Shown one piece after another: positions 16,192 through 43,894 of a stretch of DNA of 64,000 nucleotides; within the stretch, counting starts at the first letter, position 1; each line of letters starts with the position of its first letter. The notes beneath the pieces were generated by a model, which saw only the letters and a list, made by a program, of their open reading frames with translations, was not told the origin of the DNA and searched no databases. The position numbers and the translations under genes are program-made. The DNA comes from Nemertoderma westbladi (taxonomy: Eukaryota > Animalia > Xenacoelomorpha): NCBI GenBank assembly GCA_032718475.1, contig JAUCBJ010003066.1:2476-66475 (forward strand). The letters are read 5' to 3'.

Positions 16192-16442
16192 TCTAAAGTA
16201 ACAAATATAAAGAAACAAAGTAGAAGTACAGTAGGTTACTTATTGTTTTTGTGTAACAAAAAAAACACTTAAAATATCAACAAATAATATTCCAATAATA
16301 GAAAGAAATAGTTCGAACAACATGTTTTAATAATATCCTCTGAGTTACAATAAATATAAGAACGGCACTGCCGTAGGTCGTGAGGCCTCCGTTGGGAACG
16401 TCGGTTCCAGGAACCGCGGTAGGAATCCCATAAAGGATAGAT

Positions 16443-17628
16443 GGAACCCGTAGTCCCAAAGGTTACCCCGCGGGTTCCATCCAACCCGTAGACCCAACGG
16501 GTAACCCATGGGCTACATACAACCCGTAGACCCAACGGGTAACCCATAGGTTACATACAACCCGTAGACCCAACAGGTAACCCACGGGTTACATCCAACC
16601 CGTAGACCCAACGTGTAACCCTTGGGTTACTACTACCCGTAGACCCAACAGGTAACCCATGGGTTAAAACCAACCCGTAGACCCAACGGGTAACCCTTGG
16701 GTTACTACTACCCGTAGACCCAACAGGTAACCCATGGGTTACATCCAACCCGTAGACCCAACGGGTAACCCTTGTGTTACTACTACCCGTAGACCCAACA
16801 GGTAACCCATGGGTTAAATCCAACCCGTAGACCCAACGGGTAACCCCTGGGTTACTACAACCCGTAGACCCAACAGGTAACCCATGGGTTAAATCCAACC
16901 CGTAGACCCAACGGGTAACCCATGTGTTCCATCCAACCCGTAGACCCAACGGGTAACCCATGGGTTCCATCCAACACGTAGACCCAACGGGATACCCATG
17001 GGTTCAATCCAACCCGTAGGCCCAACGGGAAAGGCATGGGTTATATCCAACCCGTAGACCCAACGGGTAACCCTTGGGTTACTACAACCCGTAGACCCAA
17101 CAGGTAACCCATGGGTTAAATCCAACCCGTAGACCCAACGGGTAACCCATGTGTTCCATCCAACACGTAGACCCAACGGGATACCCATGGGTTCAATCCA
17201 ACCCGTAGGCCCAACGGGAAAGGCATGGGTTACATCCTACCCGTAGACCCAACGAGTAACCCATGGGTTACATCCAACCCGTAGACCCAACGGTAAACCC
17301 ATGGGTTAAATGCAACCCATGCAACCCAACGGGTAACCTATGGGTTACATCCGTCAACACAGCGGGTAACATGGGTTACATCCAACCCGTCAATTCAAAA
17401 GGTCACCAATGGGTGTCATCCAACACGTCAACCCAGCGGGTAACCCATGGGTTCCATACTATCCGTAGACCCAATGGGTTACATCCAATCTGTAGACCTA
17501 GCGGGTAACCCATAGGTTACATCCAGCCCGTAAACCCAGCGGGTAACCCATGGGTTCCATCCAACCCATTTACCCAACATATAACCCATGGGTTAGATCC
17601 AACCCGTAGACCCAACAGGTTACCCATG
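16443..17628. repeat. 38-bp palindrome-rich minisatellite (~30 copies, degenerating rightwards)
   Basis: Unit catccaacccgtagacccaacgggtaacccatgggtta; internal dyads acccgt/acgggt and taacccatgggtta. Confidence 0.93.
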
Positions 17629-17865
17629 TGTTTCTCACAGATACACTTCGCTGAGACTTCGCTGAGATGAGTTCGTATACATGCTGGGCAATTACAGATG
17701 GATACAACGCTGTGAGAATGCGGCGGCATCGCTGTTAAACTGCGTCCAAATGCGACTCATCACCACCAATGTGTATCTGTGAATTGGTACACTTATTATA
17801 TTTTTCTTTACCCTACTCTTATTATATTTAGTATTTACAACCAAATTAAATATGTGGATGGTTAA

Positions 17866-17871
17866 TTTATT
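17866..17871 (-). promoter_or_regulatory. Candidate polyadenylation signal for POLR3C
   Basis: AATAAA on the minus strand ~125 nt after the stop at 17997. Confidence 0.4.
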
Positions 17872-17996
17872 AATCTCTACAATCGGATAGAAAGCTCTAT
17901 ATAATTATTATTAACGACAACATTGAGTTCTGCTTCACAATATTAAAATTAAAAGTAGCATTTTATGAACAAATGTAATCAACCAATTACAATCCC

Positions 17997-18309
17997 TCAA
18001 GAACTCCCATGTATAGGTAGGTACTCCAAGTACAAAGACAATATAAATACGGTCTCGTCCACCTCTACTTCAGCCTTCTGTATCGCATTCAACCTTTTCT
18101 TCAGTAACTCCAACTGAACCTTCTCGGCGGGCGTCAGATAGTTCCTAACCTCCTGTATTTGTTCAGGGTCTGCATTGTCCTGGGTCAACTGTTCTACTAT
18201 AGAATCAACCTTGGTTCCCTGATCCAACAACCTTCTATTGTCCGAAGCCTCTTTCTCGCGCCGTAACATTAGATTCAACAAGGTCTTGTAACAATGTCCG
18301 AGAGCCACT
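17997..18309 (-). CDS. POLR3C: RNA polymerase III subunit RPC3/RPC62, exon 5 (last)
   Basis: Acceptor tttcctacag|A. Peptide (R)VALGHCYKTLLNLMLRREKEASDNRRLLDQ...YLTPAEKVQLELLKKRLNAIQKAEVEVDETVFILSLY matches the RPC62 C-terminus (HRCYKSIANL...ITAPERQQLE...QVDETIFLLESY). Phase matches exon 4. Confidence 0.92.
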
Positions 18310-21300
18310 CTGTAGGAAACAATATAAAACAATGTCTGTGAGCCGCGCCACTCTATAGGAAACAATATAAAACAATGTCTGTGAGCCACTCTATAGGAAA
18401 CAATATAAAACAATGTCTGTGAGCCACTCTATAGGAAACAATATAAAACAATGTCTGTGAGCCGCGCCACTCTATAGGAAACAATATAAAACAATGTCTG
18501 TGAGCCGCGCCACTCTATAGGAAACAATATAAAACAATGTCTGTGAGCCGCGCCACTCTATAGGAAACAATATAAAACAATGTCTGTGAGCCACTCTGTA
18601 GGAAACAATATAAAACAATGTCCGAGTGCCACTCTATAGGAAACAATATAAAACAATGTCTGTGAGCCACTCTATAGGAAACAATATAAAACAATGTCTG
18701 TGAGCCACTCTATAGGAAACAATATAAAACAATGTCTGTGAGCCACTCTATAGGAAACAATATAAAACAATGTCTGTGAGCCGCGCCACTCTATAGGAAA
18801 CAATATAAAACAATGTCTGTGAGCCACTCTGTAGGAAACAATATAAAACAATGTCCGAGTGCCACTCTATAGGAAACAATATAAAACAATGTCTGTGAGC
18901 CACTCTATAGGAAACAATATAAAACAATGTCTGTGAGCCACTCTATAGGAAACAATATAAAACAATGTCTGTGAGCCACTCTATAGGAAACAATATAAAA
19001 CAATGTCTGTGAGCCACTCTATAGGAAACAATATAAAACAATGTCTGTGAGCCACTCTATAGGAAACAATATAAAACAATGTCCGAGAGCCACTCTGTAG
19101 GAAACAATATAAAACAATGTCCGAGTGCCACTCTATAGGAAACAATATAAAACAATGTCTGTGAGCCACTCTATAGGAAACAATATAAAACAATGTCTGT
19201 GAGCCACTCTATAGGAAACAATATAAAACAATGTCTGTGAGCCGCGCCACTCTATAGGAAACAATATAAAACAATGTCTGTGAGCCGCGCCACTCTATAG
19301 GAAACAATATAAAACAATGTCTGTGAGCCGCGCCACTCTATAGGAAACAATATAAAACAATGTCTGTGAGCCGCGCCACTCTATAGGAAACAATATAAAA
19401 CAATGTCTGTGAGCCGCGCCACTCTATAGGAAACAATATTAAACAGTGTCTGTGAGCCGCGCCACTCTATAGGAAACAATATAAAACAATGTCTGTGAGC
19501 CACTCTATAGGAAACAATATAAAACAATGTCTGTGAGCCGCGCCACTCTATAGGAAACAATATAAAACAATGTCTGTGAGCCACTCTATAGGAAACAATA
19601 TAAAACAATGTCTGTGAGCCGCGCCACTCTATAGGAAACAATATAAAACAATGTCTGTGAGCCGCGCCACTCTATAGGAAACAATATAAAACAATGTCTG
19701 TGAGCCACTCTATAGGAAACAATACAAAACAATGTCTGTGAGCAGCGCCACTCTATAGGAAACAATATAAAACAATGTCTATGAGCCGCGCCACTCTATA
19801 GGAAACAATATAAAACAATGTCTGTGAGCCACTCTATAGGAAACAATATAAAACAACGTCTGTGAGCCGCGCCACTCTATAGGAAACAATATAAAACAAT
19901 GTCTGTGAGCCGCGCCACTCTATAGGAAACAATATAAAACAATGTCTGTGAGCCGCGCCACTCTATAGGAAACAATATAAAACAATGTCTGTGAGCCGCG
20001 CCACTCTATAGGAAACAATATAAAACAATGTCTGTGAGCCACTCTATAGGAAACAATATAAAACAATGTCTGTGAGCCGCGCCACTCTATAGGAAACAAT
20101 ATAAAACAATGTCTGTGAGCCACTCTATAGGAAACAATATAAAACAATGTCTGTGAACCACTCTATAGGAAACAATATAAAACAATGTCTGTGAGCCGCG
20201 CCACTCTATAGGAAACAATATAAAACAATGACTGTGAGCCACTCTATATGAAACAATATAAAACAATGACTGTGAGCCACTCTATAGGAAACAATATAAA
20301 ACAATGTCTGTGAGCCGCGCCACTCTATATGAAACAATATAAAACAATGACTGTGAGCCACTCTATAGGAAACAATACAAAACAATGTCTGTGAGCCATT
20401 CTATAGGAAACAATATAAAACAATGTCTGTGAACCACTCTATAGGAAACAATATAAAACAATGTCTGTGAGCCACTCTATAGGAAACAATATAAAACAAT
20501 GTCTGTGAGCCGCGCCACTCTATAGGAAACAATATAAAACAATGTCTGTGAGCCACTCTATAGGAAACAATATAAAACAATGTCTGTGAGTCGCGCCACT
20601 GTATAGGAAACAATATAAAACAATGTCTGTGAGTCGCGCCACTGTATAGGAAACAATATAAAACAATGTCTGTGAGCCACTCTATAGGAAACAATATAAA
20701 ACAATGTCTGTGAGTCGCGCCACTGTATAGGAAACAATATAAAACAATGTCTGTGAGTCGCGCCACTGTATAGGAAACAATATAAAACAATGTATGTGAG
20801 CCGCGCCACTCTATAGGAAACAATATAAAACAATGTCTGTGAGCCGCGCCACTGTATAGGAAACAATATAAAACAATGTCTGTGAGTCGCGCCACTGTAT
20901 AGGAAACAATATAAAACAATGTCTGTGAGCCGCGCCACTCTATAGGAAACAATATAAAACAATGACTGTGAGCCACTCTATAGGAAACAATATAAAACAA
21001 TGTCTGTGAGTCGCGCCACTGTATAGGAAACAATATAAAACAATGTCTGTGAGTCGCGCCACTGTATAGGAAACAATATAAAACAATGTATGTGAGCCGC
21101 GCCACTCTATAGGAAACAATATAAAACAATGTCTGTGAGCCGCGCCACTGTATAGGAAACAATATAAAACAATGTCTGTGAGTCGCGCCACTGTATAGGA
21201 AACAATATAAAACAATGTCTGTGAGTCGCGCCACTGTATAGGAAACAATATAAAACAATGTATGTGAGCCGCGCCACTCTATAGCAAACAATATAAAACA

Positions 21301-24300
21301 ATGTCTGTGAGCCGCGCCACTCTATAGGAAACAATATAAAACAATGTCCGAGTGCCACTCTATAAGAAACAATATAAAACAGTGTCTGTGAGTCGCGCCA
21401 CTGTATAGGAAACAATATAAAACAATGTCTGTGAGCCGCGCCACTGTATAGGAAACAATATAAAACAATGTCTGTGAGCCACTCTATAGGAAACAATATA
21501 AAACAATGTCTGTGAGTCGCGCCACTGTATAGGAAACAATATAAAACAATGTCTGTGAGTCGCGCCACTGTATAGGAAACAATATAAAACAATGTCTGTG
21601 AGCCACTCTATAGGAAACAATATAAAACAATGTCTGTGAGTCGCGCCACTGTATAGGAAACAATATAAAACAATGTCTGTGAGTCGCGCCACTGTATAGG
21701 AAACAATATAAAACAATGTATGTGAGCCGCGCCACTCTATAGGAAACAATATAAAACAATGTCTGTGAGCCGCGCCACTGTATAGGAAACAATATAAAAC
21801 AATGTCTGTGAGTCGCGCCACTGTATAGGAAACAATATAAAACAATGTCTGTGAGTCGCGCCACTGTATAGGAAACAATATAAAACAATGTCTGTGAGCC
21901 ACTCTATAGGAAACAATATAAAACAATGTCTGTGAGCCGCGCCACTGTATAGGAAACAATATAAAACAATGTCTGTGAGTCGCGCCACTGTATAGGAAAC
22001 AATATAAAACAATATCTGTGAGCCGCGCCACTCTATAGGAAACAATATAAAACAATGTCTGTGAGCCACTCTATAGGAAACAATATAAAACAATGTCCGA
22101 GGGCCACTCTATAGGAAACAATATAAAACAATGTCTGTGAGCCGCGCCACTCTATAGGAAACAATATAAAACAATGTCTGTGAGCCGCGCCACTCTATAG
22201 GAAACAATATAAAACAATGTCTGTGAGCCGCGCCACTCTATAGGAAACAATATAAAACAATGTTTGTGAGCCGCGCCACTGTATAGGAAACAATATAAAA
22301 CAATGTCTGTGAGCCGCGCCACTGTATAGGAAACAATATAAAACAATGTCTGTGAGCCACTCTATAGGAAACAATATAAAACAATGTCTGTGAGCCGAGC
22401 CACTCTATAGGAAACAATATAAAACAATGTCAGTGAGCCGCGCCACTCTATAGGAAACAATATAAAACAATGTCCGAGTGCCACTCTATAGGAAACAATA
22501 TAAAACAATGTCTGTGAGCCGAGCCACTCTATAGGAAACAATATAAAACAATGTCAGTGAGCCGCGCCACTCTATAGGAAACAATATAAAACAATGTCCG
22601 AGTGCCACTCTATAGGAAACAATATAAAACAATGTCTGTGAGCCGCGCCACTCTATAGGAAACAATATAAAACAATGTCTGTGAGCCGCGCCACTCTATA
22701 GGAAACAATATAAAACAATGACTGTGAGCCACTCTATAGGAAACAATATAAAACAATGTCTGTGAGCCGAGCCACTCTATAGGAAACAATATAAAACAAT
22801 GTCTGTGAGCCGCGCCACTCTATAGGAAACAATATAAAACAATGTCTGTGAGCCACTCTATAGGAAACAATATAAAACAATGTCTGTGAGCCGCGCCACT
22901 CTATAGGAAACAATATAAAACAATGTCTGTGAGCCGCTCTATAGGAAACAATATAAAACAATGTCTGTGAGCCACTCTATAGGAAACAATATAAAACAAT
23001 GACTGTGAGCCACTCTATAGGAAACAATATAAAACAATGTCTGTGAGTTGCGCCACTGTATAGGAAACAATATAAAACAATGTCTGTGAGCCGCGCCACT
23101 CTATAGGAAACAATATAAAACAATGTCTGTGAGTCGCGCCACTCTATAGGAAACAATATAAAACAATGTCTGTGAGTCGCGCCACTGTATAGGAAACAAT
23201 ATAAAACAATGTCTGTGAGCCGCGCCACTGTATAGGAAACAATATAAAACAATGTCTGTGAGCCGCGCCACTGTATAGGAAACAATATAAAACAATGTCT
23301 GTGAGCCACTCTATAGGAAACAATATAAAACAATGTCTGTGAGCCGCGCCACTCTATAGGAAACAATATAAAACAATGTCCGAGGGCCACTCTATAGGAA
23401 ACAATATAAAACAATGTCTGTGAGCCACTCTATAGGAAACAATATAAAACAATGTCTGTGAGCCACTCTATAGGAAACAATATAAAACAATGTCTGTGAG
23501 TCGCGCCACTGTATAGGAAACAATATAAAACAATGTCTGTGAGCCGCGCCACTCTATAGGAAACAATATAAAACAATGTCTGTGAGCCGCGCCACTCTAT
23601 AGGAAACAATATAAAACAATGACTGTGAGCCACTCTATAGGAAACAATATAAAACAATGTCTGTGAGTTGCGCCACTGTATAGGAAACAATATAAAACAA
23701 TGTCTGTGAGCCGCGCCACTCTATAGGAAACAATATAAAACAATGTCTGTGAGTCGCGCCACTCTATAGGAAACAATATAAAACAATGTCTGTGAGTCGC
23801 GCCACTGTATAGGAAACAATATAAAACAATGTCTGTGAGCCGCGCCACTGTATAGGAAACAATATAAAACAATGTCTGTGAGCCACTCTATAGGAAACAA
23901 TATAAAACAATGTCTGTGAGCCGAGCCACTCTATAGGAAACAATATAAAACAATGTCTGTGAGCCACTCTATAGGAAACAATATAAAACAATGTCTGTGA
24001 GTCGCGCCACTGTATAGGAAACAATATAAAACAATGTCTGTGAGCCGCGCCACTGTATAGGAAACAATATAAAACAATGTCTGTGAGTCGCGCCACTGTA
24101 TAGGAAACAATATAAAACAATGTCTGTGAGCCGCGCCACTCTATAGGAAACAATATAAAACAATGTCTGTGAGCCGCGCCACTCTATAGGAAACAATATA
24201 AAACAATGTCTGTGAGCCGCGCCACTCTATAGGAAACAATATAAAACAATGTCTGTGAGCCGCGCCACTCTATAGGAAACAATATAAAACAATGTCTGTG

Positions 24301-27300
24301 AGCCACTCTATAGGAAACAATATAAAACAATGTCAGTGAGCCATTCTATAGGAAACAATATAAAACAATGTATGTGAGCCACTCTATAGGAAACAATATA
24401 AAACAATGTCTGTGAGCCGCGCCACTGTATAGGAAACAATATAAAACAATGTCTGTGAGCCACTCTATAGGAAACAATATAAAACAATGTCTGTGAGCCA
24501 CTCTATAGGAAACAATATAAAACAATGTCAGTGAGCCATTCTATAGGAAACAATATAAAACAATGTATGTGAGCCACTCTATAGGAAACAATATAAAACA
24601 ATGTCTGTGAGCCGCGCCACTGTATAGGAAACAATATAAAACAATGTCTGTGAGTCACTCTATAGGAAACAATATAAAACAATGACTGTGAGCCACTCTA
24701 TAGGAAACAATATAAAACAATGTCTGTGAGCCACTCTATAGGAAACAATATAAAACAATGTCTGTGAACCGCGCCACTCTATAGGAAACAATATAAAACA
24801 ATGTCTGTGAACCGCGCCACTCTATAGGAAACAATATAAAACAATGTCTGTGAGCCACTCTATAGGAAACAATATAAAACAATGTCTGTGAGCCACTCTA
24901 TAAGAAACAATATAAAACAATGTCTGTGAGCCGCGCCACTCTATAGGAAACAATATAAAACAATGTCTGTGAGCCACTCTATAGGAAACAATATAAAACA
25001 ATGTCTGTGAGTCACTCTATAGGAAACAATATAAAACAATGTCTGTGAATCACTCTATAGGAAACAATATAAAACAATGACTGTGAGCCACTCTATAGGA
25101 AACAATATAAAACAATGTCTGTGAGCCACTCTATAGGAAACAATATAAAACAATGTCTGTGAACCACTCTATAGGAAACAATATAAAACAATGTCTGTGA
25201 GCCACTCTATAGGAAACAATATAAAACAATGTCTGTGAGCCGCGCCACTCTATAGGAAACAATATAAAACAATGTCTGTGAGCCACTCTATAGGAAACAA
25301 TATAAAACAATGTCCGAGTGCCACTCTATAGGAAACAATATAAAACAATGTCTGTGAGCCACTCTATAGGAAACAATATAAAACAATGTCTGTGAGCCGC
25401 GCCACTCTATAGGAAACAATATAAAACAATGTCTGTGAGCCACTCTATAGGAAACAATATAAAACAATGTCTGTGAGCCGCGCCACTCTATAGGAAACAA
25501 TATAAAACAATGTCTGTGAGCCACTCTATAGGAAACAATATAAAACAATGTCTGTGAGCCGCGCCACTCTATAGGAAACAATATAAAACAATGTCTGTGA
25601 GCCACTCTATAGGAAACAATATAAAACAATGTCTGTGAGCCGCGCCACTCTATAGGAAACAATATAAAACAATGTCTGTGAGCCGCGCCACTCTATAGGA
25701 AACAATATAAAACAATGTCTGTGAGCCACTCTATAGGAAACAATACAAAACAATGTCTGTGAGCAGCGCCACTCTATAGGAAACAATATAAAACAATGTC
25801 TATGAGCCGCGCCACTCTATAGGAAACAATATAAAACAATGTCTGTGAGCCACTCTATAGGAAACAATATAAAACAACGTCTGTGAGCCGCGCCACTCTA
25901 TAGGAAACAATATAAAACAATGTCTGTGAGCCGCGCCACTCTATAGGAAACAATATAAAACAATGTCTGTGAGCCGCGCCACTCTATAGGAAACAATATA
26001 AAACAATGTCTGTGAGCCGCGCCACTCTATAGGAAACAATATAAAACAATGTCTGTGAGCCACTCTATAGGAAACAATATAAAACAATGTCTGTGAGCCG
26101 CGCCACTCTATAGGAAACAATATAAAACAATGTCTGCGAGCCACTCTATAGGAAACAACATAAAACAATGTCTGTGAACCACTCTATAGGAAACAATATA
26201 AAACAATGTCTGTGAGCCGCGCCACTCTATAGGAAACAATATAAAACAATGACTGTGAGCCACTCTATATGAAACAATATAAAACAATGACTGTGAGCCA
26301 CTCTATAGGAAACAATATAAAACAATGTCTGTGAGCCGCGCCACTCTATATGAAACAATATAAAACAATGACTGTGAGCCACTCTATAGGAAACAATACA
26401 AAACAATGTCTGTGAGCCATTCTATAGGAAACAATATAAAACAATGTCTGTGAACCACTCTATAGGAAACAATATAAAACAATGTCTGTGAGCCACTCTA
26501 TAGGAAACAATATAAAACAATGTCTGTGAGCCGCGCCACTCTATAGGAAACAATATAAAACAATGTCTGTGAGCCACTCTATAGGAAACAATATAAAACA
26601 ATGTCTGTGAGTCGCGCCACTGTATAGGAAACAATATAAAACAATGTCTGTGAGTCGCGCCACTGTATAGGAAACAATATAAAACAATGTCTGTGAGCCA
26701 CTCTATAGGAAACAATATAAAACAATGTCTGTGAGTCGCGCCACTGTATAGGAAACAATATAAAACAATGTCTGTGAGTCGCGCCACTGTATAGGAAACA
26801 ATATAAAACAATGTATGTGAGCCGCGCCACTCTATAGGAAACAATATAAAACAATGTCTGTGAGCCGCGCCACTGTATAGGAAACAATATAAAACAATGT
26901 CTGTGAGTCGCGCCACTGTATAGGAAACAATATAAAACAATGTCTGTGAGCCGCGCCACTCTATAGGAAACAATATAAAACAATGACTGTGAGCCACTCT
27001 ATAGGAAACAATATAAAACAATGTCTGTGAGTCGAGCCACTGTATAGGAAACAATATAAAACAATGTCTGTGAGTCGCGCCACTGTATAGGAAACAATAT
27101 AAAACAATGTATGTGAGCCGCGCCACTCTATAGGAAACAATATAAAACAATGTCTGTGAGCCGCGCCACTGTATAGGAAACAATATAAAACAATGTCTGT
27201 GAGTCGCGCCACTGTATAGGAAACAATATAAAACAATGTCTGTGAGTCGCGCCACTGTATAGGAAACAATATAAAACAATGTATGTGAGCCGCGCCACTC

Positions 27301-30300
27301 TATAGCAAACAATATAAAACAATGTCTGTGAGCCGCGCCACTCTATAGGAAACAATATAAAACAATGTCCGAGTGCCACTCTATAAGAAACAATATAAAA
27401 CAGTGTCTGTGAGTCGCGCCACTGTATAGGAAACAATATAAAACAATGTCTGTGAGCCGCGCCACTGTATAGGAAACAATATAAAACAATGTCTGTGAGC
27501 CACTCTATAGGAAACAATATAAAACAATGTCTGTGAGTCGCGCCACTGTATAGGAAACAATATAAAACAATGTCTGTGAGTCGCGCCACTGTATAGGAAA
27601 CAATATAAAACAATGTCTGTGAGCCACTCTATAGGAAACAATATAAAACAATGTCTGTGAGTCGCGCCACTGTATAGGAAACAATATAAAACAATGTCTG
27701 TGAGTCGCGCCACTGTATAGGAAACAATATAAAACAATGTATGTGAGCCGCGCCACTCTATAGGAAACAATATAAAACAATGTCTGTGAGCCGCGCCACT
27801 GTATAGGAAACAATATAAAACAATGTCTGTGAGTCGCGCCACTGTATAGGAAACAATATAAAACAATGTCTGTGAGTCGCGCCACTGTATAGGAAACAAT
27901 ATAAAACAATGTCTGTGAGCCACTCTATAGGAAACAATATAAAACAATGTCTGTGAGCCGCGCCACTGTATAGGAAACAATATAAAACAATGTCTGTGAG
28001 TCGCGCCACTGTATAGGAAACAATATAAAACAATATCTGTGAGCCGCGCCACTCTATAGGAAACAATATAAAACAATGTCTGTGAGCCACTCTATAGGAA
28101 ACAATATAAAACAATGTCTGTGAGCCACTCTATAGGAAACAATATAAAACAATGTCCGAGGGCCACTCTATAGGAAACAATATAAAACAATGTCTGTGAG
28201 CCGCGCCACTCTATAGGAAACAATATAAAACAATGTCTGTGAGCCGCGCCACTCTATAGGAAACAATATAAAACAATGTCTGTGAGCCGCGCCACTCTAT
28301 AGGAAACAATATAAAACAATGTTTGTGAGCCGCGCCACTGTATAGGAAACAATATAAAACAATGTCTGTGAGCCGCGCCACTGTATAGGAAACAATATAA
28401 AACAATGTCTGTGAGCCACTCTATAGGAAACAATATAAAACAATGTCTGTGAGCCGAGCCACTCTATAGGAAACAATATAAAACAATGTCAGTGAGCCGC
28501 GCCACTCTATAGGAAACAATATAAAACAATGTCCGAGTGCCACTCTATAGGAAACAATATAAAACAATGTCTGTGAGCCGAGCCACTCTATAGGAAACAA
28601 TATAAAACAATGTCAGTGAGCCGCGCCACTCTATAGGAAACAATATAAAACAATGTCCGAGTGCCACTCTATAGGAAACAATATAAAACAATGTCTGTGA
28701 GCCGCGCCACTCTATAGGAAACAATATAAAACAATGTCTGTGAGCCGCGCCACTCTATAGGAAACAATATAAAACAATGACTGTGAGCCACTCTATAGGA
28801 AACAATATAAAACAATGTCTGTGAGCCGAGCCACTCTATAGGAAACAATATAAAACAATGTCTGTGAGCCGCGCCACTCTATAGGAAACAATATAAAACA
28901 ATGTCTGTGAGCCACTCTATAGGAAACAATATAAAACAATGTCTGTGAGCCGCGCCACTCTATAGGAAACAATATAAAACAATGTCTGTGAGCCGCTCTA
29001 TAGGAAACAATATAAAACAATGTCTGTGAGCCACTCTATAGGAAACAATATAAAACAATGACTGTGAGCCACTCTATAGGAAACAATATAAAACAATGTC
29101 TGTGAGTTGCGCCACTGTATAGGAAACAATATAAAACAATGTCTGTGAGCCGCGCCACTCTATAGGAAACAATATAAAACAATGTCTGTGAGTCGCGCCA
29201 CTCTATAGGAAACAATATAAAACAATGTCTGTGAGTCGCGCCACTGTATAGGAAACAATATAAAACAATGTCTGTGAGCCGCGCCACTGTATAGGAAACA
29301 ATATAAAACAATGTCTGTGAGCCGCGCCACTGTATAGGAAACAATATAAAACAATGTCTGTGAGCCACTCTATAGGAAACAATATAAAACAATGTCTGTG
29401 AGCCGCGCCACTCTATAGGAAACAATATAAAACAATGTCCGAGGGCCACTCTATAGGAAACAATATAAAACAATGTCTGTGAGCCACTCTATAGGAAACA
29501 ATATAAAACAATGTCTGTGAGCCACTCTATAGGAAACAATATAAAACAATGTCTGTGAGTCGCGCCACTGTATAGGAAACAATATAAAACAATGTCTGTG
29601 AGCCGCGCCACTCTATAGGAAACAATATAAAACAATGTCTGTGAGCCGCGCCACTCTATAGGAAACAATATAAAACAATGACTGTGAGCCACTCTATAGG
29701 AAACAATATAAAACAATGTCTGTGAGTTGCGCCACTGTATAGGAAACAATATAAAACAATGTCTGTGAGCCGCGCCACTCTATAGGAAACAATATAAAAC
29801 AATGTCTGTGAGTCGCGCCACTCTATAGGAAACAATATAAAACAATGTCTGTGAGTCGCGCCACTGTATAGGAAACAATATAAAACAATGTCTGTGAGCC
29901 GCGCCACTGTATAGGAAACAATATAAAACAATGTCTGTGAGCCGCGCCACTGTATAGGAAACAATATAAAACAATGTCTGTGAGCCACTCTATAGGAAAC
30001 AATATAAAACAATGTCTGTGAGCCGCGCCACTCTATAGGAAACAATATAAAACAATGTCCGAGGGCCACTCTATAGGAAACAATATAAAACAATGTCTGT
30101 GAGCCACTCTATAGGAAACAATATAAAACAATGTCTGTGAGCCACTCTATAGGAAACAATATAAAACAATGTCTGTGAGTCGCGCCACTGCATAGGAAAC
30201 AATATAAAACAATGTCTGTGAGCCGCGCCACTCTATAGGAAACAATATAAAACAATGTCTGTGAGCCGCGCCACTCTATAGGAAACAATATAAAACAATG

Positions 30301-33300
30301 ACTGTGAGCCACTCTATAGGAAACAATATAAAACAATGTCTGTGAGTTGCGCCACTGTATAGGAAACAATATAAAACAATGTCTGTGAGCCGCGCCACTC
30401 TATAGGAAACAATATAAAACAATGTCTGTGAGTCGCGCCACTCTATAGGAAACAATATAAAACAATGTCTGTGAGTCGCGCCACTGTATAGGAAACAATA
30501 TAAAACAATGTCTGTGAGCCGCGCCACTGTATAGGAAACAATATAAAACAATGTCTGTGAGCCGCGCCACTGTATAGGAAACAATATAAAACAATGTCTG
30601 TGAGCCACTCTATAGGAAACAATATAAAACAATGTCTGTGAGCCGAGCCACTCTATAGGAAACAATATAAAACAATGTCTGTGAGCCACTCTATAGGAAA
30701 CAATATAAAACAATGTCTGTGAGTCGCGCCACTGTATAGGAAACAATATAAAACAATGTCTGTGAGCCGCGCCACTGTATAGGAAACAATATAAAACAAT
30801 GTCTGTGAGCCACTCTATAGGAAACAATATAAAACAATGTCTGTGAGCCGCGCCACTCTATAGGAAACAATATAAAACAATGTCTGTGAGCCGCGCCACT
30901 CTATAGGAAACAATATAAAACAATGTCTGTGAGCCGCGCCACTCTATAGGAAACAATATAAAACAATGTCTGTGAGCCGCGCCACTCTATAGGAAACAAT
31001 ATAAAACAATGTCTGTGAGCCACTCTATAGGAAACAATATAAAACAATGTCAGTGAGCCATTCTATAGGAAACAATATAAAACAATGTATGTGAGCCACT
31101 CTATAGGAAACAATATAAAACAATGTCTGTGAGCCGCGCCACTGTATAGGAAACAATATAAAACAATGTCTGTGAGCCACTCTATAGAAAACAATATAAA
31201 ACAATGTCTGTGAGCCACTCTATAGGAAACAATATAAAACAATGTCAGTGAGCCATTCTATAGGAAACAATATAAAACAATGTATGTGAGCCACTCTATA
31301 GGAAACAATATAAAACAATGTCTGTGAGCCGCGCCACTGTATAGGAAACAATATAAAACAATGTCTGTGAGTCACTCTATAGGAAACAATATAAAACAAT
31401 GACTGTGAGCCACTCTATAGGAAACAATATAAAACAATGTCTGTGAGCCACTCTATAGGAAACAATATAAAACAATGTCTGTGAACCGCGCCACTCTATA
31501 GGAAACAATATAAAACAATGTCTGTGCACCGCGCCACTCTATAGGAAACAATATAAAACAATGTCTGTGAGCCACTCTATAGGAAACAATATAAAACAAT
31601 GTCTGTGAGCCACTCTATAAGAAACAATATAAAACAATGTCTGTGAGCCGCGCCACTCTATAGGAAACAATATAAAACAATGTCTGTGAGCCACTCTATA
31701 GGAAACAATATAAAACAATGTCTGTGAGTCACTCTATAGGAAACAATATAAAACAATGTCTGTGAATCACTCTATAGGAAACAATATAAAACAATGACTG
31801 TGAGCCACTCTATAGGAAACAATATAAAACAATGTCTGTGAGCCACTCTATAGGAAACAATATAAAACAATGTCTGTGAACCACTCTATAGGAAACAATA
31901 TAAAACAATGTCTGTGAGCCACTCTATAGGAAACAATATAAAACAATGTCTGTGAGCCGCGCCACTCTATAGGAAACAATATAAAACAATGTCTGTGAGC
32001 CACTCTATAGGAAACAATATAAAACAATGTCCGAGTGCCACTCTATAGGAAACAATATAAAACAATGTCTGTGAGCCACTCTATAGGAAACAATATAAAA
32101 CAATGTCTGTGAGCCACTCTATAGGAAACAATATAAAACAATGTCTGTGAGCCACTCTATAGGAAACAATATAAAACAATGTCTGTGAGCCACTCTATAG
32201 GAAACAATATAAAACAATGTCTGTGAGCCGCGCCACTCTATAGGAAACAATATAAAACAATGTCTGTGAGCCACTCTATAGGAAACAATATAAAACAATG
32301 ACTGTGAGCCGCGCCATTCTATAGGAAACAATATAAAACAATGTCTGTGAGCCACTCTATAGGAAACAATATAAAACAATGTCTGTGAGCCACTCTATAG
32401 GAAACAATATAAAACAATGACTGTGAGCCACTCTATAGGAAACAATATAAAACAATGTCTGTGGGCCACTCTATAGGAAACAATAGAAAACAATGTCTGT
32501 GAGCCACTCTATAGGAAACAATATAAAACAATGTCTGTGAGCCACTCTATAGGAAACAATATAAAACAATGTCTGTGGGCCACTCTATAGGAAACAATAT
32601 AAAACAATGTCTGTGAGCCACTCTATAGGAAACAATATAAAACAATGTCCGAGTGCCACTCTATAGGAAACAATATAAAACAATGTCTGTGAGCCACTCT
32701 ATAGGAAACAATATAAAACAATGTCTGTGAGCCACTCTATAGGAAACAATATAAAACAATGTCCGAGTGCCACTCTATAGGAAACAATATAAAACAATGT
32801 CTGTGAGCCACTCTATAGGAAACAATATAAAACAATGTCTGTGAGCCACTCTATAGGAAACAATATAAAACAATGACTGTGAGCCACTCTATAGGAAACA
32901 ATATAAAACAATGTCTGTGAGCCACTCTATAGGAAACAATATAAAACAATGTCTGTGAGCCGCGCCACTCTATAGGAAACAATATAAAACAATGTCTGTG
33001 AGCCACTCTATAGGAAGCAATATAAAACAATGTCTGTGAGCCACTCTATAGGAAACAATATAAAACAATGACTGTGAGCCATTCTATAGGAAACAATATA
33101 AAACAATGTCTGTGAGCCGCTCTATAGGAAACAATATAAAACAATGTATGTCTGTGAGCCGCGCCACTCTATAGGAAACAATATAAAACAATGTCCGAGT
33201 GCCACTCTATAGGAAACAATATAAAACAATGACAGTGAGCCGCGCCACTCTATAGGAAACAATATAAAACAATGTATGTGAGCCACTCTATAGGAAACAA

Positions 33301-36300
33301 TATAAAACAATGTCTGTGAGCCGCGCCACTCTATAGGAAACAATATAAAACAATGACTGTGAGCCACTCTATAGGAAACAATATAAAACAATGACTGTGA
33401 GCCGCGCCACTCTATAGGAAACAATATAAAACAATGTCTGTGAGCCACTCTATAGGAAACAATATAAAACAATGACTGTGAGCCGCGCCACTCTATAGGA
33501 AACAATATAAAACAATGTATGTGAGCCACTCTATAGGAAACAATATAAAACAATGTCTGTGAGCCGCGCCACTCTATAGGAAACAATATAAAACAATGTC
33601 TGTGAGCCGCGCCACTCTATAGGAAACAATATAAAACAATGTCTGTGAGCCGCTCTATAGGAAACAATATAAAACAATGTCTGTGAGCCACTCTATAGGA
33701 AACAATATAAAACAATGTATGTGAGCCACTCTATAGGAAACAATATAAAACAATGTCTGTGAGCCGCGCCACTCTATAGGAAACAATATAAAACAATGAC
33801 TGTGAGCCACTCTATAGGAAACAATATAAAACAATGACTGTGAGCCGCGCCACTCTATAGGAAACAATATAAAACAATGTATGTGAGCCACTCTATAGGA
33901 AACAATATAAAACAATGACTGTGAGCCGAGCCACTGTATAGGAAACAATATAAAACAATGTCTGTGAGCCACTCTATAGGAAACAATATAAAACAATGAC
34001 TGTGAGCCGCGCCACTCTATAGGAAACAATATAAAACAATGTATGTGAGCCACTCTATAGGAAACAATATAAAACAATGTCTGTGAGCCGCGCCACTGTA
34101 TAGGAAACAATATAAAACAATGACTGTGAGCCGCGCCACTCTATAGGAAACAATATAAAACAATGTATGTGAGCCACTCTATAGGAAACAATATAAAACA
34201 ATGTCTGTGAGCCGCGCCACTGTATAGGAAACAATATAAAACAATGTCTGTGAGCCGCTCTATAGGAAACAATATAAAACAATGTCTGTGAGCCACTCTA
34301 TAGGAAACAATATAAAACAATGTCTGTGAGCCGCGCCACTCTATAGGAAACAATATAAAACAATGTCTGTGAGCCACTCTATAGGAAACAATATAAAACA
34401 ATGTCTGTGAGCCACTCTATAGGAAACAATATAAAACAATGTCTGTGAGCCACTCTATAGGAAACAATATAAAACAATGTCTGTGAGCCGCTCTATACGA
34501 AACAATATAAAACAATGTCTGTGAGCCACTCTATAGGAAACAATATAAAACAACGTCTGTGAGTCGCGCCACTGTATAGGAAACAATATAAAACAATGTC
34601 TGTGAGCCGCGCCACTCTATAGGAAACAATATAAAACAATGTCTGTGAGCCGCGCCACTCTATAGGAAACAATATAAAACAATGTCTGTGAGCCACTCTA
34701 TAGGAAACAATATAAAACAATGTCTGTGAGCCGCTCTATAGGAAACAATATAAAACAATGTCCGAGTGCCACTCTATAGGAAACAATATAAAACAATGTC
34801 TGTGAGCCACTCTATAGGAAACAATATAAAACAATGTCTGTGAGCCGAGCCACTCTATAGGAAACAATATAAAACAATGTCTGTGAGCCACTCTATAGGA
34901 AACAATATAAAACAATGTCTGTGAGCCACTCTATAGGAAACAATATAAAACAATGTCTGTGAGCCGCGCCACTCTATAGGAAACAATATAAAACAATGTC
35001 TGTGAGCCATTCTATAGGAAACAATATAAAACAATGTCTGTGAGCCGCGCCACTCTATAGGAAACAATATAAAACAATGTCTGTGAGCCACTCTATAGGA
35101 AACAATATAAAACAATGTCTGTGAGCCACTCTATAGGAAACAATATAAAACAATGTCTGTGAGCCACTCTATAGGAAACAATATAAAACAATGACTGTGA
35201 GCCGCGCCATTCTATAGGAAACAATATAAAACAATGTCTGTGAGCCACTCTATAGGAAACAATATAAAACAATGTCTGTGAGCCGCGCCACTCTATAGGA
35301 AACAATATAAAACAATGTCTGTGAGCCACTCTATAGAAAACAATATAAAACAATGTCTGTGAGCCGCGCCACTCTATAGGAAACAATATAAAACAATGTC
35401 TGTGAGCCGCGCCACTCTATAGGAAACAATATAAAACAATGTCTGTGAGCCACTCTATAGGAAACAATATAAAACAATGTCTGTGAGCCGCGCCACTCTA
35501 TAGGAAACAATATAAAACAATGTCTGTGAGCCGCTCTATAGGAAACAATATAAAACAATGTCTGTGAGCCGCGCCACTCTATAGGAAACAATATAAAACA
35601 ATGTCTGTGAGCCGCTCTATAGGAAACAATATAAAACAATGTCTGTGAGCCGCGCCACTCTATAGGAAACAATATAAAACAATGTCTGTGAGCCACTCTA
35701 TAGGAAACAATATAAAACAATGTCTGTGAGCCGCGCCACTCTATAGGAAACAATATAAAACAATGTATGTGAGCCACTCCATAGGAAACAATATAAAACA
35801 ATGTCTGTGAGCCGCGCCACTCTATAGGAAACAATATAAAACAATGTCTGTGAGCCGCGCCACTCTATAGGAAACAATATAAAACAATGTCTGTGAGCCG
35901 CGCCACTCTATAGGAAACAATACAAAACAATGTCTGTGAGCCGCTCTATAGGAAACAATACAAAACAATGTCTGTGAGCCGCGCCACTCTATAGGAAACA
36001 ATATAAAACAATGTCTGTGAGCCACTCTATAGGAAACAATATAAAACAATGTCTGTGAGCCGCGCCACTCTATAGGAAACAATATAAAACAATGTCTGTG
36101 AGCCACTCTATAGGAAACAATATAAAACAATGTCTGTGAGCCACTCTATAGGAAACAATATAAAACAATGTCTGTGAGCCGTGCCACTCTATAGGAAACA
36201 ATATAAAACAATGTCTGTGAGCCACTCTATAGGAAACAATATAAAACAATGTCTGTGAGCCACTCTATAGGAAACAATATAAAACAATGTCTGTGAGTCG

Positions 36301-38933
36301 CTCTATAGGAAACAATATAAAACAATGACTGTGAGCCGCGCCACTCTATAGGAAACAATATAAAACAATGACTGTGAGCCGCGCCACTGTATAGGAAACA
36401 ATATAAAACAATGACTGTGAGCCACTCTATAGGAAACAATATAAAACAATGTCTGTGAGCCGAGCCACTCTATAGGAAACAATATAAAACAATGTCTGTG
36501 AGCCACTCTATGGGAAACAATATAAAACAATGTCTGTGAGCCGCGCCACTCTATAGGAAACAATATAAAACAATGTCTGTGAGCCGCGCCACTCTATAGG
36601 AAACAATATAAAACAATGTCTGTGAGCCGCGCCACTCTATAGGAAACAATATAAAACAATGACTGTGAGCCACTCTATAGGAAACAATATAAAACAATGT
36701 CTGTGAGCCGAGCCACTCTATAGGAAACAATATAAAACAATAAATGTGAGCCACTCTATAGGAAACAATATAAAACAATGTCTGTGAGCCGCGCCACTCT
36801 ATAGGAAACAATATAAAACAATGTCTGTGAGCCACTCTATGGGAAACAATATAAAACAATGTCTGTGAGCCGCGCCACTCTATAGGAAACAATATAAAAC
36901 AATGTCTGTGAGCCACTCTATAGGAAACAATATAAAACAATGTCTGTGAGCCACTCTATAGGAAACAATATAAAACAATGTCTGTGAGCCACTCTATAGG
37001 AAACAATATAAAACAATGTCCGAGTGCCACTCTATAGGAAACAATATAAAACAATGTCTGTGAGCCGCGCCACTCTATAGGAAACAATATAAAACAATGA
37101 CTGTGAGCCGCGCCACTCTATAGGAAACAATATAAAACAATGTCTGTGAGCCACTCTATAGGAAACAATATAAAACAATGTCTGTGAGCCACTCTATGGG
37201 AAACAATATAAAACAATGTCTGTGAGCCGCGCCACTCTATAGGAAACAATATAAAACAATGTCTGTGAGCCACTCTATAGGAAACAATATAAAACAATGT
37301 CTGTGAGCCACTCTATAGGAAACAATATAAAACAATGTCTGTGAGCCACTCTATAGGAAACAATATAAAACAATGTCTGTGAGCCGTGCCACTCTATAGG
37401 AAACAATATAAAACAATGTCTGTGAGCCACTCTATAGGAAACAATATAAAACAATGTCTGTGAGCCACTCTATAGGAAACAATATAAAACAATGTCTGTG
37501 AGTCGCTCTATAGGAAACAATATAAAACAATGACTGTGAGCCGCGCCACTCTATAGGAAACAATATAAAACAATGACTGTGAGCCGCGCCACTGTATAGG
37601 AAACAATATAAAACAATGACTGTGAGCCACTCTATAGGAAACAATATAAAACAATGTCTGTGAGCCGAGCCACTCTATAGGAAACAATATAAAACAATGT
37701 CTGTGAGCCACTCTATGGGAAACAATATAAAACAATGTCTGTGAGCCGCGCCACTCTATAGGAAACAATATAAAACAATGTCTGTGAGCCGCTCTATAGG
37801 AAACAATATAAAACAATGTCTGTGAGCCGCGCCACTCTATAGGAAACAATATAAAACAATGACTGTGAGCCACTCTATAGGAAACAATATAAAACAATGT
37901 CTGTGAGCCGAGCCACTCTATAGGAAACAATATAAAACAATAAATGTGAGCCACTCTATAGGAAACAATATAAAACAATGTCTGTGAGCCGCGCCACTCT
38001 ATAGGAAACAATATAAAACAATGTCTGTGAGCCACTCTATGGGAAACAATATAAAACAATGTCTGTGAGCCGCGCCACTCTATAGGAAACAATATAAAAC
38101 AATGTCTGTGAGCCACTCTATAGGAAACAATATAAAACAATGTCTGTGAGCCACTCTATAGGAAACAATATAAAACAATGTCTGTGAGCCACTCTATAGG
38201 AAACAATATAAAACAATGTCCGAGTGCCACTCTATAGGAAACAATATAAAACAATGTCTGTGAGCCGCGCCACTCTATAGGAAACAATATAAAACAATGA
38301 CTGTGAGCCGCGCCACTCTATAGGAAACAATATAAAACAATGTCTGTGAGCCACTCTATAGGAAACAATATAAAACAATGTCTGTGAGCCACTCTATGGG
38401 AAACAATATAAAACAATGTCTGTGAGCCGCGCCACTCTATAGGAAACAATATAAAACAATGTCTGTGAGCCACTCTATAGGAAACAATATAAAACAATGT
38501 CTGTGAGCCGCTCTATAGGAAACAATATAAAACAATGTATGTCTATGAGCCACTCTATAGGAAACAATATAAAACAATGTCTGTGAGCCGCGCCACTCTA
38601 TAGGAAACAATATAAAACAATGTCTGTGAGCCACTCTATAGGAAACAATATAAAACAATGTCTGTGAGCCACTCTATAGGAAACAATATAAAACAATGTC
38701 TGTGAGCCGCGCCACTCTATAGGAAACAATATAAAACAATGTCTGTGAGCCACTCTATAGGAAACAATATAAAACAATGTCTGTGAGCCACTCTATAGGA
38801 AACAATATAAAACAATGTCTGTGAGCCACTCTATAGGAAACAATATAAAACAATGTCTGTGAGCCACTCTATAGAAAACAATATAAAACAATGACTGTGA
38901 GCCACTCTATAGGAAACAATATAAAACAATGAC
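18291..38933 (-). repeat. 20.6-kb 38/43-bp satellite (~500 copies) filling POLR3C intron 4; unit = 3' splice acceptor plus exon-5 start
   Basis: Sense unit cattgttttatattgtttcctatag|agtgg(cgcgg)ctcacaga; the terminal copy runs straight into coding sequence. Confidence 0.98.
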
Positions 38934-38965
38934 TATACTTTTTTCCCTAGACGTCACCCACCCAC

Positions 38966-39126
38966 CTGACTACTTTCTGGATATCGACCGAGAAGTAATA
39001 TAGAGTCCGACTTGGCGACCGATCGGATGAGCGAGGAATCTCCCGCAAGTAAACGTAAGATTCCAGGAACATCTGGTACAATAACTGTTTGGTTTCCTTC
39101 GGCGGCAATAAAGCTATCGATTCTAT
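38966..39126 (-). CDS. POLR3C: POLR3C exon 4
   Basis: ttattgcag|ATA; IESIALLPPKETKQLLYQMFLESYVYLREIPRSSDRSPSRTLYYFSVDIQKVV (RPC62 motif EIPK..DHAPSRTFYLY.V); donor AG|GTGGGT. Confidence 0.93.
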
Positions 39127-39220
39127 CTGCAATAAATATATTACAGTCAAAGAGCTTCTAACCAAAACACTAAACTAATTCTCATTTTATTTGTGCCCCC
39201 CCCCCCTGATCCCTTCTCAC

Positions 39221-39663
39221 CTGTTTCTGATCCAGGGCTCCCTTCTCTAGTATCAACCGAAACAGTCGGGCTGACTTCGACCCGAATCTCTCCATCACTA
39301 TGGTAACCAGAGTCTCCCGTACCAGCAGTTGTACCCCGGACTTTATATTAACGGAGAACATCCCACCCCCGTCGTCCCCCGCCCGGGACACAAACGAGTT
39401 CGGGTCCTCAGCCATCATGTTGAGATAGGTGGTAACCATGGTTACGGAAGACTTAGTGTTGCCGGGGAGACCAGCGTGGACGCGGTGTGTGCTTATCGGT
39501 TCGGTGGAGGCGGCCCGGTAGACCGTGGTAACGCTGAGTCGCAGCACCGTCTGCACGATCTCGCCCGCTATTGGTCCGTAAGCGTTGGTTGTCACGGTAA
39601 CTAGGAGTTGGTCCCTCAGTGATTGGTGGAAACGGTCCGGGTTGATGTACCAACAGGAGGGGT
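39221..39663 (-). CDS. POLR3C: POLR3C exon 3
   Basis: cccgacag|AC; WYINPDRFHQSLRDQ...GDDGGGMFSVN...IVMERFGSKSARLFRLILEKGALDQKQ; donor CAG|GTGAGA. Confidence 0.93.
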
Positions 39664-39859
39664 CTGTCGGGAATTAATAATCAGTAATAAATTAATATGA
39701 TTGATTATGGTGGACACAAAACATAATGTACCTTTAAATAATAATAATTTTAAAAGAAAATTAGCGGAAATTATTAGATTATAACTCCGATATATTATCC
39801 AACTCTCATTCTACTAGGAATTCAATACTCGAGTCTGTGGTTAATAAATATTCGTTCAC

Positions 39860-40224
39860 CTTCCGGGCTTTTAGTTTCCGGAGTTCCGGAGAACTTCCGT
39901 TTCACTCCGCGGTCATTCAACTCGGTGAAATCGCTGTCCCGGACAAGGAAACCCGAGTCGGTATCCTGTTGCAGCAGAACGGGGGCCGTCGGAGTGGTTT
40001 GGGAGACCGCCGGACACCGACGTAGGAAGTGGGTGTGTACGAGATCGACGAAGGTCTCTCGGATGGAGTCCAGATCGCCGCTGTTCCCCTCCGCGATCAA
40101 CCGATCGCGCACGCGACTGATCAGCTCACCCCCCGTTAGTTCCCCCTTCATAAGCAATTCCTCGATAATGAGTTCACCGGTGTCCTGATAGAGGCGTTGT
40201 ATTACCATGGCATAACGAGGGAAT
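39860..40224 (-). CDS. POLR3C: POLR3C exon 2
   Basis: gtttgtag|A; RFPRYAMVIQRLYQDTGELIIEELLMKG...FVDLVHTHFLRRCP; donor G|GTGAAC; phase consistent with exons 1 and 3. Confidence 0.92.
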
Positions 40225-40362
40225 CTACAAACACAATACAAAAGGCTATATAGTTATCAGTTATCAAAATTCCCGAAAGAGTCCTTACTTTCAGAGGCTT
40301 CACAAATTTGAAAAATCCAATCACTGCTTTGCTGTACTTGCAGACATTGAGATCTAACTAAC

Positions 40363-40622
40363 CTTGGCCGCAGTAATATAGAAGACGGATTCACCGTATA
40401 ATAGACCAGACCATCCCCGCCTATCTTGAACCCAGCTATGTGTTGGTGTATAAGAACGCAGAGCGAGTTTTTTACTTGACTCGGTTTCATATTTAGCCGA
40501 CGGCACGAATCCCGAAGAGTGAGTGATCCTTTAGCCAACATTCCCGCCACAACCTCGCCGATCGTACTCCCGTATAACTCGCTACAAACAACTTTGCATA
40601 AACTGATCTCACGTTGCGCCAT
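40363..40622 (-). CDS. POLR3C: POLR3C exon 1
   Basis: ATG at 40622; MAQREISLCKVVCSELYG...QVKNSLCVLIHQHI...; donor AG|GTTAGT. The five exons total 1542 nt = 513 aa plus stop. Confidence 0.92.
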
Positions 40623-41400
40623 GGTACGGCCTCGGCCTATATAATCGTGGTACCCAACTGCCCAAACCATACGGGACAGCACGACACCGTATCGTATCCA
40701 ACAGGATATGCCAACTCAGCTCACTGCACTACACTACGGTAGCTCGATTAGCACTAAGATACTAAACGAATAGGCCTACCGGGAACGCAAGGCGCCAGGC
40801 CAGCAACACTCTTGGATAAATATAAAATTAAGTCCCAGCAACTTACTTTGATCTGAAGAATTTGAATTTCCCTCCTTTATTTCTTTGCATATCTAATCAA
40901 TAACAGTAGACTGAAGAGGGATATTTAAATTATTGTACGTTCTCAGATCATGCTGTCATGCAGATTACCGGTACAACATACCACAGTACGAGTACAACTC
41001 CTCTAGTACCAGTATTGTCACTGACACAGCAAACTACAATTCATATAGCTTTCAAGTGTCGAGGCAGGTGACGGCGTTGGCCTTGGTAGAGCGCGGGTTG
41101 GCGTCTAGGCGTTGGCGTTGGTAGAGCGCGGGTTGGCGTCTAGGCGTTGGCGTTGGTAGAGCGCAGTTGTAATCTCAGAAGATTCCGGTATCATATACTA
41201 ATAGAGTGATATAGTCCAGTAGTCTGGTAGTCGTAGTAGGCCTATTATAACAATAGGAGGCCTCCCCGACTGCCCGAGGGGAGGCACTCCACTTGCAGAC
41301 TTGGTTCTGTCCTTAAACTATTACTGCATTACAATACTGCAATACAATTAGCGTTACCAGTCAGTAACCGTCGTCCCACGAGACGGGACCCATGCACAAA
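40623..41400. promoter_or_regulatory. Inferred bidirectional promoter region between POLR3C and XPA
   Basis: Divergent start codons ~780 bp apart; no specific core elements assigned. Confidence 0.55.
41072..41165 (+). repeat. 35-bp tandem repeat (~2.6 copies) with a tRNA D-arm/A-box-like motif
   Basis: ttggtagagcgcgggttggcgtctaggcgttggcg; GGTAGA at 41085, 41120, 41155. Confidence 0.75.
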
Positions 41401-41609: not shown

Positions 41610-41978
41610 GTTAGTTGTTTACTTGTTTAGAGTTTACTCAAAAGTCACACAGATCCATGCAGGCGATTGCGATAGGCCATCTAATATCTGCATATCAGCT
41701 ACCGCAGTAGTGTCAATGATGTCAGAAATATATGATGAAAGTTGAAAGTTTGTAAGAGCCTGTCTGGCTGGTCAAAGCTAAAACTGAGATTTATACATTC
41801 CGAATCCATTTCTTGTTTGAGGTTTGATTAACATTGGCGATTGCAGTAAGTTTTACTTTTGTTGACTAGCTAGGCCCTACACAACACATATATCCATTAG
41901 TAAAAATCATATTATAAACTTCACTTTATTTTTACTTTCATTTTCTGAAAGATTTTGTTTATTTCGGTTTATTTTTAG

Positions 41979-42236: not shown

Positions 42237-42262
42237 GTAATATTTAATATTATATGTAGAGC

Positions 42263-43838: not shown

Positions 43839-43894
43839 ATAAGGTTAGGTTTAGATTAATAATTAACCAATCAGGTTGTTTAATCCACTTCTAG

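Follow-up and report, generated by a model that had tools for sequence, protein, structure and literature searches.

The last intron of POLR3C in Nemertoderma westbladi: 508 copies of a splice junction ahead of the acceptor used in the dominant transcript

How is a 3' splice site recognized when hundreds of near-copies of it are transcribed first? This question is raised by the gene POLR3C (RPC62/RPC3) of Nemertoderma westbladi, which lies on the minus strand of a 64,000-nucleotide stretch of contig JAUCBJ010003066.1 (hereafter the window, in whose coordinates all positions are given). The product of this gene, a subunit of RNA polymerase III, is essential, and its fourth and last intron is filled almost completely by a tandem array of copies of the intron/exon junction, an extreme case of the described class of "mirage" minisatellites. 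Our answer, held with moderate confidence, is that intron 4 is a 508-unit amplification of its own 3' junction, that the dominant splice uses the last acceptor, and that the decoys are ignored through commitment from the exon side, that is by the sequence of exon 5 together with the poly(A) signal.

The gene was present in five of the eight sequencing runs listed, and the contigs of four of them (X1, X2, X4 and X5) were compared with the window over 38875-40700. X1 is the possible source run of the assembly and X2 belongs to another study, while X4 comes from study P3 and X5 from study P2, where it shares its sample with the DNA run X2. The records of X4 and X5 carry the label 'DNA?', and we read both as RNA since introns 1-3 are spliced out at GT..AG ends: contigs of X1 and X2 retain these introns, whereas those of X4 and X5 omit them at exactly the predicted ends. 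The gene model comprises five exons coding for 513 aa, and its introns, all of the GT..AG type, measure 138, 196, 94 and 20,656 nt in the order of transcription:

40363..40622, minus strand: exon 1, coding part; ATG at 40622, Pfam HTH_9, contigs spliced at 40363
39860..40224, minus strand: exon 2; the flanking introns of 138 and 196 nt are spliced out in X4 and X5
39221..39663, minus strand: exon 3; Pfam RNA_pol_Rpc82 and POLR3C_WHD, covered by contigs
38966..39126, minus strand: exon 4, ending in phase 2; Pfam POLR3C_WHD, covered by contigs
17997..18309, minus strand: exon 5, coding part to the stop, 103 aa; RPC3_helical (RPC3 helical hairpin), alignment of homologues
17832..17996, minus strand: 3' untranslated region (UTR); AATAAA at 17871-17866, end estimated from the length of the X4 contig

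The end of the 3' UTR assumes that no further intron is present, in which case the additional 478 letters of the X4 contig lead to about 17832, 34 nt past the AATAAA. The 5' UTR extends upstream of exon 1, where the X4 contig continues beyond 40700. Four of the five exon pieces have Pfam matches, and the domains follow the expected order of RPC82 HTH, Rpc82, winged helix and C-terminal helical hairpin (E 3e-11, 6e-18, 6e-14 and 5e-17). A word-based search for homologues with exon 3 accepted 0 of 519 candidates. A phmmer search with the protein returned 239 relatives with a top identity of 43%, the best matches being named RPC3, and in a tree made with a quick method (53 rows from hits P0001-P0075, 400-600 aa) the model forms a long branch. 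Exon 5 is as well conserved as the rest of the gene (23-38% identity to homologues vs. 27-37% for exons 1-4), and the exon 4/5 junction is gap-free in 11 of 11 aligned homologues. Two minor features of the transcripts were observed besides. X4 contains a minor 5' isoform in which splicing runs from a GTAAGT donor at 40846 to the acceptor of exon 2 (40846-40225, minus strand) and bypasses the start codon at 40622 (depth 35 vs. 510). One X5 contig, starting in exon 3 (39292), has 24 letters of foreign sequence where no AG is present; it is probably a chimera of the library rather than a sign of a spliced leader.

Tandem Repeats Finder describes intron 4 as one array (18304-38931, 508.7 copies, score 29,730, far above chance). 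Each unit is composed of 25 nt of intron end followed by 13-18 nt derived from the start of exon 5; 250 units are 38 nt and 256 are 43 nt long, two have other lengths, and 66 distinct sequences occur. An earlier note, made from the letters alone, had placed the intron between 38965 and 18310, with some 32 unique nt after the donor and a first acceptor at 38907 that would give an intron of 59 nt, and both the gene model and the count of sites confirm this outline:

18310..38965, minus strand: intron 4, the last intron, 20,656 nt, 99.8% array; X4 and X5 join exon 4 to 18309
38934..38965, minus strand: unique head of the intron, 32 nt; holds the sole intron donor GTGGGT, the only GTRNG of the intron
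18310..38933, minus strand: mirage array, 508 units of 38 or 43 nt, with internal block duplications
38907..38909, minus strand: first decoy acceptor (TAG); would leave an intron of 59 nt and, after 25 residues, a stop
18391..18393, minus strand: decoy no. 507 (TAG), exon start 18390; the sole frame-keeping decoy in register (+27 aa), not the junction seen in contigs
18338..18342, minus strand: predicted branch-point-like CTCAC, A at -30; comes from the last repeat unit
18310..18312, minus strand: true acceptor (CAG), the last of the 509 sites; no other in-register site combines CAG with the yTnAy motif

Including the true acceptor, which stands last, there are 509 acceptor-like sites, ending in TAG (419), TAC (84), CAG (4, the true site among them) or another triplet (2). 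The earlier figure of about 500 decoy 3' splice sites has to be corrected, as an in-register AG survives in 422 decoys (419 TAG and 3 CAG). In each of the 84 TAC units, an AG follows two bases downstream. These AG-dead units cluster in two duplicated blocks at about 26800-31000 and 20600-24300 (minus strand), where they make up as many as 23 of 50 units, and both ends of the array are nearly all AG-intact. Splicing to the first decoy would give the peptide RVAHSHCFILFSIEWLTDIVLYCFL*, which bears out the early stop predicted before while differing by two residues from the peptide then proposed, and the decoys that follow would produce introns of 97, 135 and 173 nt. The frame to the natural stop is kept at two of the 423 AG sites (nos. 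507 and 509) and at one of the 499 shifted AGs; among the 422 in-register decoys, 421 cause a loss of frame or an early stop, in most cases within 14-52 residues. We also considered the array as coding sequence and rejected this, given that most sites lead to a stop within 14-52 residues and the longest frames reach about 235 residues.

In X4 and X5 alike, the end of exon 4 (38966) is followed by 30 nt that a comparison by eye identified as the start of exon 5 (18309-18280); the nearest decoy, no. 489, matches just the first 20 of them. The X4 contig extends from exon 2 to exon 5 without a break, at a depth of 1003. Neither run has cover over the repeat part at 38875-38935, which was not counted as evidence. 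A minor 5' junction at depth 35, or 3.5-6% of the main contigs, was retained in the X4 assembly, and rivals at a few per cent can therefore survive it. The dominant transcript in two studies joins exon 4 to the last acceptor, as the earlier note had expected when it argued that the most distal site must be selected. Neither of the findings by which the note would have been refuted was made: spliced exon 4-exon 5 contigs exist, and the reads contain the array at about its assembled copy number.

Long arrays are prone to misassembly, and we therefore asked the reads whether the array is real. Three repeat words reached depths of 9500, 1000 and 1100 in X1, compared with 27-32 for unique contigs. 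The resulting repeat/unique ratios of 298-349, 31-37 and 35-40 stand against 325, 31 and 34-35 copies in the window and amount to 0.92-1.19 of the assembled copy number, which serves as a rough check, depth being no copy number according to a warning of the tool. The array is thus real, present at about its assembled copy number, and likely long on both alleles of the X1 sample. In X2, at low cover, the same words lie at 61-81 times unique depth, or 0.18-0.25 of the window count, which suggests about 90-130 units on average in that sample and hints at length polymorphism.

These depths also bear on the possibility that the long allele splices poorly and that the mRNA has its source in alleles with a short array or none, or in a second copy of the gene that was not seen. 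The RNA was indeed obtained from other samples, and a repeat depth in X2 of about one fifth of that in X1 is what a short and a longer allele together could give. An array-free allele or an identical second copy would, however, halve the X1 ratios, and both are therefore disfavoured in X1; moreover, X1 yields a single contig over exons 1-4 and, at 90% likeness, no further version of it, the letters of the RNA contigs do not deviate, and all five exons are intact and conserved. We regard this explanation as quite improbable. The long allele would itself be functional, the one reason for thinking so being that both homologues of this essential gene appear to carry it.

An artefact of assembly, which the agreement between read depth and assembled array contradicts, is hardly credible, and we place stepwise (recursive) removal of the intron with it at the same very low level. 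A weak GT does follow one base after the AG in every unit and could be taken as a step site, but the junction reads AG|AG, and use of the weak GT would add or lose one base. No GTRAG occurs anywhere in the 20,656 nt of intron 4 and the only GTRNG is that of the true donor, on which grounds recursive splicing at AG|GT was rejected, in agreement with the earlier argument from the AG|AG junction.

Could the last site win simply by being better than the others? Over -25..-1, 388 of the 509 sites match the true site in all but base -3, and 103 are identical to it over -43..-1, while 360 combine the true-site tract with an AG and a branch-like yTnAy, so that by sequence the decoys appear locally near-equal to the true acceptor. 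The CAG triplet is confined to the last 21 sites, where it occurs in decoys nos. 489, 496 and 502, all three without an upstream yTnAy, and over -30..-1 none of the other sites is identical to no. 509. A decision by local quality alone, through the in-register CAG and the branch-point motif, could build on these differences. Yet the three CAG decoys end one repeated unit type and represent approximately one event, the 84 TAC units form a CAG two bases further on, mostly behind the same CTCAC, and intron 1 of the gene itself uses a TAG acceptor. A preference for one base would moreover hardly outweigh 419 competitors that are transcribed earlier, and we find it improbable that local quality suffices.

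Alternatively, RNA structure might hide the decoys, each TAG decoy containing the palindrome CTATAG that is missing from the true site. In predicted folds, the AG has a mean probability of being unpaired of 0.41 at TAG decoys vs. 0.53 at the true site. Among the 423 AG sites, however, the true one ranks only 42nd for the AG, 48th for the branch region and 207th for the tract, and the real acceptors of introns 1-3 score 0.10-0.29, below the decoys. Predicted folding does not single out the true site, and masking by structure, to which we attach next to no probability, was rejected.

What does set the last site apart lies downstream of it. Over +21..+120, the true site is followed by sequence with a U content of 0.24, a purine content of 0.61 and five GAA triplets (counted as a proxy only for enhancers), compared with 0.39-0.49 U, 0.36-0.43 purines and 0-1 GAA behind the 506 decoys examined. 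The AATAAA lies 438 nt downstream of the true site, and neither AATAAA nor ATTAAA was found anywhere in intron 4. Only the last site is backed by a real exon and a poly(A) signal, and definition from the exon side is therefore the likeliest mechanism. Every decoy carries at most 20 nt of exon before U-rich intron resumes, with no donor or poly(A) signal behind it. The donor of exon 4 would thus wait during transcription of 20 kb and pair with the acceptor that is defined along with 3'-end processing, while among the last sites CAG, the branch-like CTCAC and the adjoining exon may favour no. 509. For human cells, terminal exon definition is described as coupling the poly(A) site to the 3' splice site that precedes it, and last introns as being removed late (PMC5473595, PMC5766209).

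Several points weigh against such exon-side definition. The decoys nos. 2-4 would give introns of 97-173 nt, like the others of the gene, and 94-196 nt is a size range in which splice sites are usually paired across the intron. Contigs demonstrate presence and not absence, and steady-state RNA is blind to products that are destroyed. The RNA stems from samples other than the one with 508 units: that of X5 seems to have about 90-130 units on average, and the genotype behind X4 was not seen. Sites 501-508 are only 481-762 nt away from the AATAAA, and coupling to the poly(A) site alone can therefore not pick among sites 501-509, where the decision likely falls to the neighbouring exon 5 and to the combination of in-register CAG and CTCAC, which is unique to no. 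509. Finally, the papers on the mechanism cover human cells, and terminal introns are described in PMC5766209 as depending less on exon definition.

Some of these points would also fit frequent use of the decoys through intron definition, the resulting early-stop transcripts with 3' UTRs of up to 20 kb being destroyed by nonsense-mediated or nuclear decay. The products of nearly all in-register decoys (421 of 422) would be out of frame or end early, and decoys 2-4 offer introns of the gene's usual size (97-173 nt). An unbiased or first-come choice among 422 near-equal sites would, however, leave well under 1% correct mRNA in an essential gene, and a strong bias for the last site is therefore required anyway. 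The stop of such transcripts would also lie in the last exon, without a downstream junction for decay of the exon-junction-complex type, and the X4 contig is unbranched at the junction though decoy junctions would pool there (149 and 116 of the 422 share their first 20 nt). In favour of decay, the donor of the second unit of a repeat in human ABCA7 is detectably used and gives an out-of-frame transcript (PMC5954066). We consider routine decoy use followed by decay unlikely, though it is the main rival of exon-side definition.

The array itself may have begun with a short direct repeat, which the earlier note had named as a plausible seed:

18290..18334, minus strand: likely duplication seed; CATTGTT at 18334-18328 (intron) and at 18296-18290 (exon)

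The two copies, at -25 and +14 of the true junction, are spaced 38 nt apart, which is the basic unit length and what such a seed requires. Slippage between them would have duplicated the junction once, and unequal exchange would then have expanded and homogenised the array. We propose unequal exchange because of the internal block repeats, among them exact ones, 44 and 25 units long, with a lag of 147-148 units, and shorter ones at lags of 15, 30 and 163-164; two unit types account for 228 of the 508 units. Going by the spacing of the seed, the ancestral intron 4 probably measured 59 nt, and 59 nt is also the length of intron 4 minus the array.

Tandem arrays make up 69% of the window. The gene XPA, head-to-head with POLR3C (41866-44054, plus strand; Pfam XPA_N and XPA_C), has an intron of about 1.66 kb that consists almost entirely of a 22-nt array (42295-43839) which does not copy splice sites; the predicted acceptor of this intron is likewise TAG|AG, and an XPA exon is matched by four of seven candidates at 67-71%, one of them from Styela clava. 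Given the share of arrays in the window and the array in the XPA intron, this genome appears to expand short units readily, and the array in POLR3C is most likely a side effect of this tendency that the gene tolerates, and not a regulatory device. In the opposite case, the 422 decoys would be working acceptors that are bypassed since the last intron is held until the poly(A) site, the final unit would have been tuned (CAG, and a branch point copied from exon sequence), and the length of the array, about 100 vs. 500 units between individuals, would be a heritable means of delaying an essential Pol III subunit or controlling its dose, a proposition that we find doubtful.

Other arrays of the window also touch on gene ends or splice-like signals. 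A fibrinogen-domain frame (10951-12018, plus strand, Pfam Fibrinogen_C) ends inside the first unit of an array of 91 copies of 46 nt (11983-16191, plus strand) that copies the last codons and the stop of this gene. The 31-nt array at 60502-64000, which runs off the window, shows a plus-strand GTTAGT that resembles a donor and, on the minus strand, ACTAAC..AG, and from these motifs it is possibly another junction-derived array. At 54666-60277, 165 copies of a 34-nt unit (98% matches) each contain an acceptor-like CTATAG|G, and no host exon was found near this array. The remaining features are an array (47725-53251) whose unit is 27 nt (9 codons) long and whose two strands both have long open frames, and a broken reverse-transcriptase retroelement fragment (53639-54461, minus strand, Pfam RVT_1).

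How does this locus compare with known systems? Giant introns swollen by satellites are found in expressed genes of the Drosophila Y chromosome, which reach megabase scale and are tissue-specific; their satellites are simple repeats and not copies of splice junctions. The closest relatives are the mirages of amphioxus, known from Adh3, the globins BflGb6 and BflGb9, troponin C and PGBD5 (PMC3087553, PMC3902484). As there, the head-to-tail unit in POLR3C arose over the boundary of a host intron and exon, with a seed spacing equal to the unit length, and BflGb6 likewise copies the 3' end of an intron and the start of an exon. Many but not all units keep their splice signals (in POLR3C, AG in 422 of 508, with 84 TAC and two other), normal mRNA is made (in POLR3C, splicing is regular in the dominant contigs, which come from samples other than the 508-unit one and leave room for rare products), and turnover is concerted, with distinct units at the edges. 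Array length differs between haplotypes in amphioxus, where somatic instability is reported for the Adh3 mirage, and the POLR3C unit falls within the 10-72 bp of Adh3. The POLR3C array, however, has 508 units over 20.6 kb, compared with three to seven in the amphioxus globins and PGBD5, and, unlike the mirages described there, it sits in the last intron of a housekeeping gene that is essential and keeps its remaining introns below 200 nt. In the model of Rogers, a duplicated AG/GT proto-splice site creates a new intron or exon (as outlined in PMC3087553); intron gain by tandem duplication was rejected for POLR3C, where the units lack a donor, a single intron is kept and the protein is collinear with its homologues.

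On the donor side, two human arrays are comparable. The variable number tandem repeat (VNTR) in intron 18 of ABCA7 (25-bp unit, 298-10,678 bp, about 12-427 units; PMC5954066) is similar in scale and in having a unit that begins with a splice site, and it shows large length polymorphism. One of its decoys is detectably used and its length affects the isoforms, whereas no decoy product appears in the POLR3C contigs. The 37-bp VNTR in intron 7 of F7 contains five to nine identical donors, and splicing uses none but the one next to the exon (PMC1557585). Its unit size is nearly identical to that in POLR3C, its first unit spans the junction, its pseudo-sites are silent and the exon-adjacent site wins in both genes; the pseudo-sites of F7 are known by mutation to be functional, while POLR3C offers 422 candidate acceptors recognized by their sequence. 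We found no acceptor-side array of comparable size in the literature searched, which included few subscription journals and did not extend to the supplements of the mirage papers with their copy numbers, and within this literature the POLR3C array is the largest acceptor-side case.

It shows the extent of junction repeats that an essential gene tolerates, and it is a warning that in the output of gene predictors and short-read assemblies such genes will appear in truncated form. In the donor-side arrays of F7 and ABCA7 the authentic site is transcribed first, so that a first-come choice suffices. In POLR3C, the authentic acceptor is the last of 509 and comes after 422 near-identical ones over 20 kb, in a gene with other introns of less than 200 nt; here, first-come choice and intron definition predict failure and exon-side definition predicts success, and alleles of different natural length would provide a dose series. 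The class of such arrays is already known, and what POLR3C adds to it is a sharp test case for splice-site choice rather than a new system.

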